Assembly (NCBI GenBank): GCA_036676985.1
Contig: JAKFBU010000073.1
Span: 118,521-182,520 of the forward strand
Origin: Candidatus Sericytochromatia bacterium
Lineage (GTDB): Bacteria > Cyanobacteriota > Sericytochromatia > S15B-MN24 > UBA4093
Direction of reading: 5' to 3'
DNA length: 64,000 nt
Shown: one piece after another, positions 4,500 to 10,815 of the stretch
Layout of the letters: every line of letters begins with the position of its first letter
How positions within the stretch are numbered: position 1 is the stretch's first letter
Made by a program: the position numbers and the translations under genes
The notes under the pieces: generated by a model
Told to the model about the DNA's origin: nothing
Seen by the model: only the letters and a program-made list of their open reading frames with translations
Database searches by the model: none

Positions 4500-6053
4500 A
4501 TGGGGATGGGACAACCGATCCAGGGGTACCCCTACGTTCCGGCGGTCCCCTACATGCCACCCGTGGGCATGCCGCCCGTCATACCGTACATGCCGCCGGT
4601 TCCGGTGGCCCAGCCGGTCCCCATGATGCCGACCGTGCCAATGGCGCCCCCGGCCCCGCCCATCACGGTCGTGCCCATCGGCCAGATTCCGCCAGCCGTT
4701 CCAGGCGATCAGTGGGTCCCCAGCCAGCCCACCGCCGGCCCCACCGTGCCGCCGGCCCCCCCGGCTCCCCCGATGACCCCGGCACCGCTCAATCCGCCGG
4801 CCGACCACTATGTTCCCAGTCAGCCGACCCCGGGCCCCAAGGCGCCTCCCGCGCCCCCTGCGCCTCCGGTCCACGAGCCGAAGAAGGTGAAGCCCACGAG
4901 CGACCGGGCAGAGTTCAATCGCATGGACTCCAACCATTCCGGCAAGGTCTCGGCCAAGGAGTTCAAGGCCCGCGGTGGCGACAACTTCAAGCAGGCCGAC
5001 CGCAACCGCGATCGCCACGTGACCTGGCGCGAGTACCGTGCCACCGAACTCACGCGCCAGTCCTTCCAGCACCTGGACCGCAACCATGACGGCATGCTCA
5101 AGGCCGGCGAGATCTCCCGGATCGAGACCCCTTCGGGCGCGACCTTCGACGCCAACCATGACGGCAAGGTGACCAAGAAGGAGTTCCTGGCGGCGCGCAC
5201 CAAGGATGCCAAGGCCGTCGGGCGCCCCGATGCCAAGGACGTGCGGGCCCGGGCGGACAAGGTCTTCAAGCAGGCCGACCTGGACCGCAACGGGCGCCTC
5301 ACGGGCGACGAGCGGAGCCGCCACCGCGCCTACGATCGCAACAAGAACGGCATGATCTCGCGCTCCGAGTTCATGGCGGGCCAGGCCGACGACCGCCAGG
5401 CGGCCGACCAGCAGCTGCAGCTCAAGGGGCGCTTGCCCGATGCCCTGGCGCGCCGGCTCTGGAAGGACGCCCTGGGCGAGTCCCGGAAGGTGCCCAAGCC
5501 CGGCATGTGGCTCGACGCGACCAAGATCGCCGCCCTGCTCGGCTCGCCCGTCGCGAACGTCCGCAAGAGCCTGCCCGGCATCCTCAAGGCCCTCAACGAG
5601 GCCGGCCTCAAGGACCGCAACTCCGTCATCGCCGTGCTCGCGACCATCCGCACCGAGGTGGGCAGCTTCATGCCCATCCACGAGTACGGGGGCCCGTCAT
5701 ACTGGGCCCGGTACAACGGTCGCTCGGATCTCGGCAACGTGCGGCCCGGCGACGGCGTGCGCTACCACGGCCGCGGTTTCATCCAGCTGACGGGGCGTCA
5801 CAACTACCGTACCTATGGCCAGGCCGTGGGCGTGGACCTCGAGAAGCACCCGGACAAGGCCCTCAACCCCAAGGTGGCGGCCGAGGTGCTCATCGCCTAC
5901 TTCAAGTCCCACGGCATCCCGGACAAGGCGCGCCGGGGTGACTGGTACGGCGTGCGCACCGCCGTCAACGGCGGCGACAACGGCTGGGACACCTTCAGAT
6001 GGGCCGTCAGCAGGCTCCAGAGCTCCTCGAGCTGGCTCAAGCGAGACGGATGA
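4500..6053 (+). CDS. Pro-rich region + six EF-hand motifs + glycoside hydrolase family 19 (chitinase/lysozyme-like) domain
   Basis: EF loops DSNHSGKVSAKE, DRNRDRHVTWRE, DRNHDGMLKAGE, DANHDGKVTKKE, DLDRNGRLTGDE, DRNKNGMISRSE; GH19 signature LATIRTE...E...YHGRGFIQLTGRHNY...VNGG. Confidence 0.85.
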   Translation: MGMGQPIQGYPYVPAVPYMPPVGMPPVIPYMPPVPVAQPVPMMPTVPMAPPAPPITVVPIGQIPPAVPGDQWVPSQPTAGPTVPPAPPAPPMTPAPLNPPADHYVPSQPTPGPKAPPAPPAPPVHEPKKVKPTSDRAEFNRMDSNHSGKVSAKEFKARGGDNFKQADRNRDRHVTWREYRATELTRQSFQHLDRNHDGMLKAGEISRIETPSGATFDANHDGKVTKKEFLAARTKDAKAVGRPDAKDVRARADKVFKQADLDRNGRLTGDERSRHRAYDRNKNGMISRSEFMAGQADDRQAADQQLQLKGRLPDALARRLWKDALGESRKVPKPGMWLDATKIAALLGSPVANVRKSLPGILKALNEAGLKDRNSVIAVLATIRTEVGSFMPIHEYGGPSYWARYNGRSDLGNVRPGDGVRYHGRGFIQLTGRHNYRTYGQAVGVDLEKHPDKALNPKVAAEVLIAYFKSHGIPDKARRGDWYGVRTAVNGGDNGWDTFRWAVSRLQSSSSWLKRDG

Positions 6054-7561: not shown

Positions 7562-8356
7562 CTACTGCACCTGGGTGCCGACATGCTCCCGGAGGAGGGT
7601 GCGAGCGCGATCGAAGGGCTCCGGACCGAGGCCCGCTCGCCCCCACAGCGGATGATCGAGGGCGATGATCAGGAAGACCACCAGCCCGAGCATGCCGGCG
7701 AGACTCGTGATCATGGCGGCGTGGACGCGCCGGTTGTCGGTCCAGAAGCAGTAGGTGAACCCGACGGTCAGGGTCGCCCCCGCGAACAGCACAAACCACA
7801 GCTCTCCCGGCAGTCCCGCGGTGCCGGCGAGGATCCGCTGGCGACGGTAGCCGATCAGGTCGTCGAGGTTGCGGAGGGCTTCGGCGTGCATGAGGCCCTG
7901 CCCCGTGCCGACGGGCTCGAAGCGGGCCCACTCCCGCACCAGGCCCTCGATTGCCCGACCGCTCGCATGGGGCTCCTCCCGGCGCGCGAGGCGCGGCCAG
8001 TCGTCCGAGACCACGAGGCTCGCGTAGTCGACGAGCATGGCCTCGAGCCGCTGACGGACGGCCGGCGGGTAGGCCTCCAGGTCCAGGGCGAGCTCGGTGA
8101 GGGTCGCGGCCTCGTGGGCGATCGCCCGCTCGGCCGCCGTGTAATTCTCCCAGGCCCCCACGGCCACCAGCCCCAGCAGCACCGCGTAGATGACGGAGAT
8201 CCCCTCGAAGACGAAGCGCGCGAGCTCGTTGTGGGTGAGGCTGAAGCGCTGGATCCAAGGGTGCGCGAGGCGGAAGCCCAGGAGCGACAGCCCCACGAAG
8301 CCCCCGATCACCCCCACGGCCAGCAGCGAATTGGGGACCCACTCCCACCAGCGCAT
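7562..8356 (-). CDS. DUF4239 (bestrophin-like) membrane protein
   Basis: Four TM segments; YAVLLGLVAVGAWE...EA, YA..VV.D.WP, R.QR, LD.P..G family pattern. Confidence 0.8.
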   Translation of the reverse strand: MRWWEWVPNSLLAVGVIGGFVGLSLLGFRLAHPWIQRFSLTHNELARFVFEGISVIYAVLLGLVAVGAWENYTAAERAIAHEAATLTELALDLEAYPPAVRQRLEAMLVDYASLVVSDDWPRLARREEPHASGRAIEGLVREWARFEPVGTGQGLMHAEALRNLDDLIGYRRQRILAGTAGLPGELWFVLFAGATLTVGFTYCFWTDNRRVHAAMITSLAGMLGLVVFLIIALDHPLWGRAGLGPEPFDRARTLLREHVGTQVQ

Positions 8357-8626
8357 GGCCCGTCCTCCCGCGCCATCAGGCGCTTGCCGGCCTCTTGAGC
8401 CCGATCGCGCGCATTAAATCCTCGTTGCGGTTCCGTGAGAAGTGTTTGGAATTAAAAAAATCTCAGACAAGTGTGACAGATTTGGGTGCCCGCCGGGTGA
8501 AATACGGGAGGAAGCCGAAACGATCCCCCGGCAAGAATGAGTCCAGCAAGCCGTCGGGGTATAGAACTCGCAGCCGAATGCGAGTCGCAACGTCCAGGCA
8601 CTCGCATTCGAATCGGGAGGGTTTGC

Positions 8627-9913
8627 ATGTCAGGCATTTCATCAGTCACCAACACACCGGCCTACACGCCGCCGGCCCAGACCGCGGGGGCCGGAGCTCC
8701 TGCCGCTGCCGGCGGTGCCGCGCCCGCTTCCGCTCCGGCCGCGGCCGGCGACTCCGTCAGCACGGGTGGCGGTCAAGCAGCCTCGGGCAACCTCGAGATG
8801 TTCCAGGCCTCGGGCGTCGTCAAGGACGTCTCGCCCCCCCTGCCCCCGGTCGAGCAGCCCAAGGCGACGGCCGCACCCGACATCAAGCCGTACGAGGCCC
8901 CGCCGGTCCACGACGACACGATCAAACCGCCTTCGCCCATCAAGAACACCCATTTTTCGATCATCGAGGGCCCGGCGAGCCCCGACCCCTGAGTGGAGTT
9001 CTGCGGCCGCGATGGTATCGCGGCAACGGTGAGCGGCCCCCACGGGTCCATGCAGATGCCCATCCAGCAGCGCAACGGCACCTACGAGATCCTGCGCGAC
9101 GCCTACAACCCGGGCGACCTCAACGTCAAGGGCGAGTTCGTCGACGGCGACCTCAAGAAGGTCTCCATGACCGTCAGCATGGATAAGGCCAAGGGCACGG
9201 CCGACCTGATCGAGTACGACGGCACGACGCTCATGGTCAACGGCAAGCCGGCCAACCCGCCCCTGACCACCGAGAACGGCACCAAGATCACGATGGAGGG
9301 CGGCAAGTTCCACATCGAGACCAAGGGCGGCGACACGTTCAACATGGAGCCGACCATCTGCCCGGCCATCAACCTGGAAGGCGACGTCAACCCCAACCGC
9401 GGCACGGATAGCGTGCGCTCGGAGCTGCTGGGCGACTTCGACGACGATCCCAACAGCACCTGGGTCACCAACGCGGATGCCCAGAACATCTTCGGTGCGG
9501 GCGGCGCCACCGGCGCTCCGGCCGGCGGTGCGGGCGCTGCGGGTGGCGGTACCTCGTTCCTGGACAGCATCTTCGAGAGCCTGCGCAAGCTCTTCTCGTC
9601 GCTCGCAGGCTCCAGCGACGCCGGCTCCGTGCCCCCTGGCCCCGGCCAGGACCTGCTCAACAAGGTCAAGACGCCCGAGCTCAAGCAGGCGATCTTCGAC
9701 AAGGCCAAGTCGGGCGGCGGCATCGACGTCGACAAGCTGCTCGCGACCATCAAGGATCCGGCCGAGCGCGAGAAGATCGGCATGGCCCTCACGCACGGCT
9801 CGACGTCTGTCGAGGACGTGATCAAGATGATCTCGAAGCCGGAGGAGCGCCTGGCGTTCCTGACCGAGCTGGTCGGTCCCACCAAGGCCGCCGAGCTCAA
9901 CGCCAAGCTCTAG
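8627..9913 (+). CDS. Secreted-type protein with VWD-like domain, interrupted by in-frame TGA at 8990-8992 (candidate selenoprotein, otherwise nonsense pseudogene)
   Basis: GGGAGG + ATG 8627; ORFs 8537..8992 and 8993..9913 share one frame; no SD before 8993 or 9050; DP*VEFCGRDG resembles VWD GDPH..TFDG and ELLGDFDDDP resembles VWD GLLGNFDGDP. Confidence 0.65.
8990..9027 (+). promoter_or_regulatory. Candidate bacterial SECIS element
   Basis: UGA, 13 nt, then stem GCCGCGAT/ATCGCGGC (9006-9013/9017-9024) with GGU apical loop 21 nt after the UGA. Confidence 0.5.
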
Positions 9914-9924
9914 TCTGACCCAGG

Positions 9925-9950
9925 GAGGGCGGGGGACTTCCCCCGCCCTC
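9925..9950 (+). terminator. Stem-loop downstream of 8627-9913
   Basis: GAGGGCGGGGG-ACTT-CCCCCGCCCTC, 11-bp perfect stem. Confidence 0.55.
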
Positions 9951-9975
9951 GCTTCCCGTCTCAAGAGGAGTCTCC

Positions 9976-10815
9976 ATGGCCACCGCGAGCCCCGCCCCCG
10001 TCCGCACCGGCAACGAGAAGGTCGTCTACGACTGCTGCACCGCCATGCGGGGAATCCTGGACCGCTTCAAACCGAACGGCGCCCTCGACTGGCCGGGTGC
10101 CGAGGCCATCGTCAACAAATTAGCCAAGATCTTGCCCCCCTCGCCCGAGCTGGTGCCCGGCCTCCGGGTCACGGGCGGCTACGACGAGGCCCACGCCATC
10201 AACGTGGCCGTCTACGCCATGACCATGGCGCGCGGCATGGGCATGCCCCAGGGCCGCCTCATCGAGATCGGCCTCGCGGCCCTCTTCCACGACATCGGCA
10301 AGATCATGCCCCAGTCCCACCCGAAGAAGGCCGAGCTCACCCGCTTCGAGGAGCACGGCTCCATCGGCCGGGTGATGCTCTCCGAGCACTTCGAGGTGCT
10401 GCCGCGCATCACCGAGTGGGTGGCCGACCACCACGAACGGGTGGACGGCAGCGGCCCGCGCGGCCACAAGACCCCGTCCATCGAGGCCCAGATCATCGGC
10501 CTGGTCGACATCTACGACGCCAACCTCACGCCCCACCCGCGCCGGGCCACCCTGACGCCGCACTCGGCGTGGAACGTGGCCCTCACGGTGGCCCCCAAGA
10601 AGTTCGCGCCCGAGGTGGTCGCGGCCTTCAAGGCGCACATCCTGCCCTACCCGCCCGAGACCCGGGTGGTGCTCACGGGCGGCACGCCCGCGGTGATCGT
10701 GACGCCCGCCGCCTCGGAGCACCCCTTGGCTCCGGTGGTGCGCTGCGGCGACGGCAACGTGTACGACCTCTCGGAGTACGCCTCGCCGCGGGTCGTGGGC
10801 CTGGCGCGCGACTGA
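9976..10815 (+). CDS. HD-GYP domain protein (degenerate GYP motif)
   Basis: HAINV, FHDIGK, HHERVDGSGPRG, D.YDA; C-terminal YPP.T.V.L..G subdomain. Confidence 0.8.
   Translation: MATASPAPVRTGNEKVVYDCCTAMRGILDRFKPNGALDWPGAEAIVNKLAKILPPSPELVPGLRVTGGYDEAHAINVAVYAMTMARGMGMPQGRLIEIGLAALFHDIGKIMPQSHPKKAELTRFEEHGSIGRVMLSEHFEVLPRITEWVADHHERVDGSGPRGHKTPSIEAQIIGLVDIYDANLTPHPRRATLTPHSAWNVALTVAPKKFAPEVVAAFKAHILPYPPETRVVLTGGTPAVIVTPAASEHPLAPVVRCGDGNVYDLSEYASPRVVGLARD

Follow-up and report, generated by a model that had tools for sequence, protein, structure and literature searches.

A probable selenoprotein family with a VWD fold in Sericytochromatia

VWD domains of the GDPH type, found in FCGBP, MUC2, MUC5AC and RGM, are typical of extracellular proteins and form a β-sandwich with an Asp-Pro pair after the first strand and a G-x-F-D-D motif at the domain end. 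In domain D10 of FCGBP, a His-to-Asn exchange stops cleavage of the Asp-Pro bond, as reported in PMC10880436. In the 64,000-nucleotide stretch of DNA analysed here (the window; positions 118,521 to 182,520 of contig JAKFBU010000073.1 from a Candidatus Sericytochromatia bacterium), the reading frame at 8627-9913 is very probably one gene for a 428-residue selenoprotein, with selenocysteine (Sec) at UGA codon 122 inside a VWD domain. The predicted protein shares the β-sandwich, the Asp-Pro pair after the first strand and the terminal G-x-F-D-D motif with the GDPH-type domains. Unlike them, it has the His either replaced by Sec or displaced by a Sec-headed loop of 11 residues, Pro for the Gly of GDPH (as in its homolog L015), only two Cys in addition to the Sec, and no C8, TIL or E module recognised by Pfam.

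The gene also has uninterrupted paralogs in the same bacterial order (for example P0016-P0032, G000:C56 and G018), which show the same layout, with a Met-x-x-Ile/Val-type N-terminus and no signal peptide, and which share the Pro-rich linker, the (I)KNTxFS strand, the DP pair and the VWD-like sandwich. They differ from the window protein in having neither the in-frame stop nor an 11-residue insertion, and many of them carry EF-hand or coiled C-terminal regions instead.

Catalogued selenoproteins decoded through a bacterial selenocysteine insertion sequence (SECIS; bSECIS for the bacterial form), SelD included, resemble the window gene in that the UGA is followed by a small-loop hairpin within 16-37 nt, decoding depends on SelA, SelB, SelD and tRNA-Sec, and the Sec lies near a Cys. 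The published bSECIS model comprises a loop of 3-9 nt, a stem of 4-16 bp, a G among the first two loop bases, a distance of 16-37 nt from the UGA and a minimum free energy of at most -7.5 kcal/mol (PMC13188914 Fig. 2). The window protein differs from the catalogued families in its fold, which is VWD rather than thioredoxin-like or that of a metabolic enzyme, in its motif, which is UxxxC rather than UxxC or CxxU, and in that no Cys-form homologs were found.

No VWD entry stands among the 119 families plus subfamilies in Table 1 of a 2026 review of prokaryotic selenoproteomes (PMC13188914), a text in which cyanobacteria have 0 occurrences. Willebrand or VWD has 0 occurrences in PMC13188914, PMC13326102 and PMC12013277, whose supplementary family lists may use another name; BSepDB Table S2 and deep-Sep Table S2 lie outside this comparison. 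The literature gave nothing relevant that joins selenocysteine with GDPH, selenoproteins with VWD, or selenoproteins with Sericytochromatia. These results, together with zero hits in NCBIfam (release 20.0) for the window protein, agree with an earlier note on this DNA, whose author knew of no Sec-containing VWD family. The comparisons below point to a genuine and apparently undescribed family of Sec-containing VWD proteins in Sericytochromatia.

The in-frame TGA, its hairpin and the selenocysteine machinery

The frame opens at ATG 8627, a start position (MSGI...) common to the window, L004 and L015, and runs to TAG 9911-9913. Its sole break is the TGA at 8990-8992, in the context SPDP-stop-VEFCGRDG. 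The GC content at codon position 3 is 0.83 before the TGA and 0.94 after it, compared with 0.51 in the spacer upstream of the gene, and residues 1-428 are all covered by the read-through homolog L015 at 51% identity. The earlier note had described this frame, the GGGAGG before its ATG and the TGA at codon 122, and had judged both halves to be coding; all of these readings hold.

The same arrangement is found in relatives, for which 61 related genomes were searched in six frames, and GTDB contigs and JGI metagenomes were scanned in addition. Seven of the 61 genomes matched, and five matches (G000, the window genome, G012, G018, G020 and G024) cross the stop with one TGA. The scans added loci titled Candidatus Sericytochromatia and Tanganyikabacteria metagenome-assembled genomes, giving a total of 13 loci that represent seven distinct sequences. 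The TGA occupies the identical column in all of them, preceded by F-[SA]-I-x-x-G-P-x-x-[GP]-D-P and followed by x-E-x-C-G. Four aligned sequences of family f4 are 28-33% identical to the window protein over the full length. Coding conservation extends over both flanks of the TGA across the seven loci, and the two halves always share one frame. The earlier note had proposed comparing codon 122 among relatives and confirming the TGA in reads. The codon is TGA in 7/7 distinct loci and never one for Trp, Arg or His, and contigs from four runs of four studies carry both the TGA and the hairpin described below. Two of the records compared (X5 record 2 and X7 record 10) are identical to the window across the TGA, and among the 40 listed of 54 differences between contigs of other runs and the window none falls within 8927-9061. 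A sequencing error or a recent nonsense mutation at the TGA is excluded.

High-GC bacteria usually favour TGA as stop. In the 48 likely genes of the window, TAG ends 29, TGA 12 and TAA 7, so that TAG is the main stop despite a genome GC content of 68.7%. TGA is a real but minority stop here, which argues against both a reassigned code and the chance fixation of TGA in all lineages; its fixation at the codon-122 column in every lineage is unexpected for an ordinary stop.

Downstream of the TGA, the arms GCCGCGAT (9006-9013) and ATCGCGGC (9017-9024) pair perfectly over 8 bp. The stem begins 13 bases past the TGA and its GGT loop starts 21 nt past it, exactly as previously described. The note had also suggested a lower GTT/AAC pairing, which is possible in the window, whereas its register is not kept in the homologs, where the lower-stem pairings differ. 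The upper hairpin alone reaches -12.5 kcal/mol. Judged against the published constraint values (PMC13188914 Fig. 2 legend), it fits every one of them with its GGU loop, 8-bp stem, 21-nt distance and energy. Stem and loop are made up of the rare codons GAT, GGT and GCA, which account for 18.1% of 966 Asp codons, 6.6% of 1509 Gly codons and 3.8% of 2120 Ala codons, respectively, in the 48 likely genes, confirming that this codon choice is atypical. Of 39,946 randomly sampled TGAs of the genome, 0.55% are followed by a Watson-Crick stem of 8 bp or more whose geometry fits a bacterial SECIS. The hairpin of a single sequence is by itself suggestive but not decisive, and the comparative data carry the weight.

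In a gapless alignment of the seven sequences, the eight pairs stand in one register and enclose a loop that reads GGU, GUC or GUG. Across these sequences 96.4% of the 56 pair cells are paired, compared with 35.7-67.9% when the partners are slid, and four of the eight stem pairs vary on both sides in a compensatory manner, values that 0 of 500 shuffles reach. The changes include U-A and A-U pairs of the window against C-G, a C-G against G-U, and G-U, C-G and G-C variants. The covariation that the earlier note had proposed to look for is therefore present.

The window genome contains SelA (543 bits), the wing domain of SelB, SelD (387 bits) and one tRNA-SeC with anticodon tca, which settles the question of the machinery raised beforehand. 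The SelD gene (L021, G000:C26:280471-281394) has one in-frame TGA of its own, in LVRKSG-stop-ASKVNP, and downstream of it a 7-bp stem that carries a GUC triloop. Judged by its sequence, it is itself a selenoprotein gene, and it serves as an internal positive control for the SECIS. SelA and SelB are found in 5/5 carrier genomes. SelA exceeds the cut-off in 23 of the 61 related genomes, and its co-occurrence with the gene is supportive but weak, because SelA is common in the group and the carrier genomes are kin. All 23 SelA genomes fall within five families of the window's class (f1, f3, f4, f5 and f7), while SelA is present in 0/13 genomes of family f6 and in 0/14 genomes from other classes of the phylum. 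From this distribution, the use of Sec seems confined to part of the non-photosynthetic cyanobacterial class.

The conserved in-frame TGA, the covarying hairpin and the complete Sec machinery together uphold the proposal of a selenoprotein gene with a SECIS. In the mechanism that we propose, the ribosome would reach UGA-122, SelB carrying Sec-tRNA(Sec) would bind the hairpin at 9006-9024, and Sec would be inserted without termination. We rate this as standard bacterial Sec decoding in a new protein family. What sets it apart is its fold and its lineage, the lack of a Cys form, and the location of the SECIS in a loop insertion at a self-cleavage motif.

VWD fold and the selenocysteine site

Residues 92-428 were modelled with AlphaFold2 on the basis of 32 aligned sequences; the mean predicted local distance difference test score (pLDDT) is 79.6, with values of 85-97 in the sandwich. 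The first strand of the modelled sandwich (HFSII) lies upstream of the UGA, so the VWD domain spans the stop codon. In Foldseek the best match is MUC5AC (E 1.3e-7), and MUC2, MUC5B, VWF and FCGBP D assemblies are found as well; there are 39 matches at E ≤ 0.001, and nearly all are VWD proteins among the matches listed. VIA-align superposes the model on VWF with Z 18.6 and a root-mean-square deviation of 2.3 Å over 152 residues (model range 12-198), and gives Z 15.7 to FCGBP and Z 13.1 to RGMB, compared with Z 4.4 for the best non-VWD protein among the matches listed. The VWD-like fold suggested in the earlier note is thus confirmed at the level of the predicted structure. Pfam gives 0 families for the window protein at E ≤ 1, the VWD model (PF00094) being unmatched. 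In hhalign, the profile of the Sec clade matches that of the GDPH paralogs with a probability of 99%, covering columns 44-170 and not reaching the motif.

The N-terminal 121 residues contain no Cys, and the N-terminal region shares 38% identity with the corresponding part of the uninterrupted paralog L009, encoded elsewhere in the genome. The C-terminal helical domain is common to L015 and P0002-P0010 and is absent from the L003/L005 subgroup. The product is predicted to consist of a Pro/Ala-rich N-terminus devoid of a classical signal peptide, a VWD-type β-sandwich and a helical C-terminal domain.

The segment 5' of the TGA (PIKNTxFS...DP) aligns with the segment 5' of GDPH in the uninterrupted paralogs. 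In the MAFFT alignment the strand (I)KNTxFS before the DP pair is also matched between the Sec clade and the GDPH paralogs, and columns D17 and P18 are invariant in 15/15 aligned Sec-clade and GDPH sequences. The window reads P-D-P-U, as L015 also has Pro, and five of the seven homologs read G-D-P-U; the His of GDPH is absent. Relative to the paralogs, eleven codons are inserted at this site. They include the UGA and the UxxxC motif as well as 17 of the 19 bases of the hairpin, so that Sec loop and SECIS both come with the insertion. In RGMB, the cleaved chains that start at the Pro of GDPH align only from model residue 42 on. Given this alignment and the 11-residue insertion, strict positional equivalence of U and His is unproven. 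Of the earlier claim that the UGA occupies the His position of GDPH, the placement of Sec directly after the invariant DP stands and the strict equivalence does not; the data fit equally a U equivalent to His with a 10-residue insertion and a U heading an 11-residue insertion.

Two Cys residues are specific to the Sec clade. Cys126, the Cys four residues past the UGA that had been pointed out before, is invariant in 7/7 read-through sequences and is also present in P0010, P0012 and P0013. The GDPH paralogs have equivalents of neither Cys126 nor Cys245. In the proposed protein, Sec would head an 11-residue loop (U-x-x-x-C-G...) after Asp-Pro, with the loop codons doubling as SECIS. Together, Sec122, Cys126 and Cys245 would probably make up either a redox centre of the selenylsulfide type or a site for metal binding, in a flexible loop next to Asp-Pro of an exported or surface protein, an assignment that we hold with lower confidence than the decoding itself.

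The relatives in protein databases agree with a gene that is truncated by annotation. With the downstream half as query, a search of 5.8 billion clusters returned 10 hits of 284-306 aa and no uninterrupted ortholog. A search with the read-through protein (candidates of 235-749 aa) returned nine hits in that size range at 65-71% query cover, again with no uninterrupted ortholog. Among 1.84 billion representatives, the domain profile picked out 25 proteins. The six close matches all start at or past the Sec column, so gene callers have cut the close relatives at the stop codon. Of the products given by gene callers, P0010 starts with MEFCGRDG and P0012/P0013 with MCG. The distant matches are uninterrupted; 11 of the 17 tested hit Pfam VWD at E ≤ 0.01, nine of them above the cut-off, and GDPH is invariant in all 15 distant relatives aligned. 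P0022, with 4685 aa, has six matched stretches (profile positions 23-63). The only representative hit that spans the Sec column, P0029, is a repeat protein of GPSHGS...DGSFTY units and was dismissed as spurious.

Stop-free paralogs are present in 21/47 genomes of the class, several per genome, and read (G/A)DPH in 20 of 23 motif rows. The GDPH VWD-like family is expanded in the order (L028-L052; seven matches in G018; G000:C56:145678-146100 and 123551-123817). Its members have Pro-rich linkers, varied C-termini with EF-hands or coiled regions, and no signal peptide. The family is little annotated, nine of the 17 tested members exceeding the Pfam VWD cut-off. The N-terminal 120 residues of the window protein are shared at 38-41% identity with L009 (G000:C77:12552-12917) and L010 (G001:C119), uninterrupted proteins of about 400 residues that continue into two repeats with EF-hand-like D-T-N-G-N/S-G loops.

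Because the His-to-Asn exchange blocks cleavage in FCGBP, the Sec clade would either have lost self-cleavage or perform it with the selenol, and Asp-Pro self-cleavage of the window protein is uncertain. The Sec loop may modify or replace the His-assisted Asp-Pro self-cleavage of canonical VWD domains; if cleavage occurs, Sec would be the second residue of the C-terminal fragment. A bolder proposal, which we regard as rather doubtful, is that Sec replaces the catalytic His of the GDPH self-cleavage motif in a secreted VWD protein and makes its maturation dependent on selenium or redox state, maturation being either cleavage at Asp-Pro or the capture of the reactive Asp that it leaves. If true, this would be the first selenoprotein family with His rather than Cys in its non-Sec relatives, and the 11-codon insertion would have been fixed for giving SECIS and catalytic loop together.

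Alternative explanations of the stop codon

The main rival, which is disfavoured and which we consider unlikely, is a pair of genes: translation would end at TGA 8990 and begin again at the neighbouring GTG (in homologs, at ATG or TTG at +3), giving pieces of 121 aa and 306 aa. GTG 8993, which the earlier note had overlooked, adjoins the TGA on its 3' side and makes a downstream open reading frame of 306 aa formally possible. Gene callers indeed give 284-306-aa products, some of which (P0010, P0012/P0013) start right there. Such a split would fall at the VWD self-cleavage site, mimicking cleaved GDPH proteins, and it is structurally tolerable, since GDPH cleavage of FCGBP leaves the first β-strand on a separate bound fragment, as PMC10880436 describes. 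The restart position, however, is not conserved, being +1 in the window, where +3 is TTC, and +3 in the others, and the codon directly 3' of the TGA in L015 is AAC, which is not a start. The earlier note had seen no Shine-Dalgarno sequence before the downstream half, and no usable one is seen: the GTG of the window is preceded by CCCGACCCC, and the ATG of the homologs follows GGAG directly. Moreover, a stable hairpin (-12.5 kcal/mol) lies a few bases into the downstream frame, where it would get in the way of initiation; it is nonetheless maintained through compensatory changes. Every lineage has TGA as this stop, even though TAG is the most frequent stop codon here, the frame between the halves never shifts, and the Sec machinery is present in all carriers.

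Hairpins 3' of stop codons can stimulate read-through. The UGA might accordingly be read by a near-cognate tRNA for Trp, Cys or Arg, stimulated by the hairpin and without selenocysteine, a reading that draws on the comparative nature of the Sec assignment and that we consider very unlikely. Against it, the hairpin fits the bSECIS geometry and its triloop follows the design seen in the SelD SECIS of this genome, the Sec pathway is complete in 5/5 carriers, and a sense codon would be simpler for Trp, Cys or Arg, yet the databases searched hold no such ortholog. Nothing but the bare presence of an in-frame stop speaks for a pseudogene, or for a mistake of sequencing or assembly at 8990-8992; with the same TGA in seven distinct loci from independent assemblies and in contigs of four runs from four studies, and with the protein conserved on both sides of it (GC at codon position 3 of 0.83 and 0.94), the probability of this reading is negligible.

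Several observations weigh against a Sec-containing protein and must be set beside the evidence for it. When G-U pairs are allowed, 4.6% of the sampled TGAs qualify for a comparable stem, GC-rich hairpins being common in this genome, and the 46-nt fold (-18.3 kcal/mol) has a z of only -1.76, with 11 of 200 shuffles folding equally well. One stem mismatch each occurs in L015 (G-G) and L006. The covariation tool itself warns that related sequences may outscore shuffles even when no structure is present, and five of the seven sequences come from family f4, which leaves about four independent lineages. Rfam, scanned over 8350-10000 at E ≤ 10, yields no SECIS family, and no match comes close to a gathering score. 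A start codon lies at most three codons past the TGA in 7/7 sequences (GTG at +1 in the window, ATG or TTG at +3 elsewhere). Where the insertion begins (model residues 31-36), pLDDT is below 50, so that the proximity of U122 to Cys126 or Cys245 is conjectural. No Cys-containing homolog at the Sec position was found in the database searches. Current pipelines rely on Cys/Sec pairs, and Cys homologs are the usual support, according to PMC12013277; the absence of a Cys form is unusual for selenoproteins, although this is a customary criterion and not a mechanistic requirement. Finally, the support for selenium incorporation and for a full-length protein is comparative throughout.

Genomic context and biological meaning

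The coordinates of the selenoprotein gene, its signals and its neighbour are collected in Table 1.

Table 1 Features of the predicted selenoprotein locus (positions in the window)
Feature	Position	Strand	Remarks
Shine-Dalgarno-like GGGAGG	8615..8620	+	6 bases 5' of ATG 8627; read in sequence
Predicted selenoprotein coding sequence	8627..9913	+	428 codons including UGA-122; TAG 9911-9913 at end
N-terminal Pro/Ala/Gly/Thr-rich region, residues 1-102	8627..8932	+	No Cys; no hydrophobic signal peptide seen
VWD-like β-sandwich, residues ~103-287	8933..9487	+	Spans UGA; AlphaFold2, VIA-align, hhalign
Asp120-Pro121 codons, retained DP of GDPH motif	8984..8989	+	Alignment
UGA codon 122, predicted to be read as selenocysteine	8990..8992	+	Same column in 7 distinct loci
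Eleven-codon insertion U-V-E-F-C-G-R-D-G-I-A	8990..9022	+	Relative to GDPH paralogs; MAFFT alignment A5
Candidate lower stem	8998..9027	+	GUU 8998-9000 with AAC 9025-9027; register not kept in homologs
Cys126 codon (UxxxC partner)	9002..9004	+	Invariant column C23, alignment A3
Putative SECIS upper hairpin	9006..9024	+	Stem 9006-9013 with 9017-9024, GGU loop 9014-9016
Cys245 codon, second Sec-clade-specific Cys	9359..9361	+	Invariant in alignments A1, A2, A3
C-terminal helical domain, residues ~310-427	9554..9910	+	AlphaFold2 helices, model 219-336; alignments
HD-domain gene (HD-GYP-like, HHERVDGSGPRG)	9976..10815	+	Pfam HD, HD_5; NCBIfam HDIG; tblastn

As in the window, the HD-domain gene adjoins the selenoprotein gene downstream in nine loci, which comprise all five distinct loci with downstream DNA, on the same strand and with 34-58% identity (tblastn). 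The two genes probably act together. In the HD-domain protein the GYP position reads GPR, within HHERVDGSGPRG, and in NCBIfam it comes closest to a c-di-GMP phosphodiesterase response-regulator family, at 55 bits and so far below the cut-off of 400. The 62-nt spacer between the genes (9914-9975) contains a strong GC hairpin, GAGGGCGGGGGA CTT CCCCCGCCCTC, with no T-run, which was left uncalled by the terminator scan; the terminator and promoter scan of 8300-10100 found nothing. The further neighbours, which encode CorA, a bestrophin-like protein, a phosphoribosyltransferase and an AI-2E transporter, offer no functional clue.

Each carrier contains two full-length FlhA/FHIPEP genes, in the window genome at C26:70652-72616 and C6:61109-63100, and likewise in the four others, which implies two type III export gates per carrier as judged from the gene content. 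The earlier note had suggested export of the putative selenoprotein by a non-Sec route, perhaps a flagellar type III secretion system (T3SS). Export of the T3SS kind is thus possible; nothing ties the two FlhA-family genes to this protein. The window also encodes, at 4500-6053 (+), a 517-aa protein whose Pro-rich N-terminus shows no signal peptide. It contains several EF-hands, its C-terminal segment resembles Glyco_hydro_19 (E 5.3e-6), and it may belong to the same exported class as the putative selenoprotein.

The proposed family would add to the selenoproteins a member beyond the thioredoxin-like and metabolic-enzyme folds, namely a mucin-type VWD protein that is probably extracellular. Its host lineage is Sericytochromatia, the non-photosynthetic relatives of cyanobacteria. 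Annotations of the carrier genomes retain only a downstream part of 284-306 residues. In addition, screens for Cys/Sec pairs would overlook the family by design, because no Cys form of it has been found. A Sec at a well-studied self-cleavage site would offer a direct handle on the effect of a selenol beside an Asp-Pro bond. Moreover, an insertion that encodes the Sec loop together with its own SECIS would represent a route by which a selenoprotein may originate from a non-Cys ancestor.

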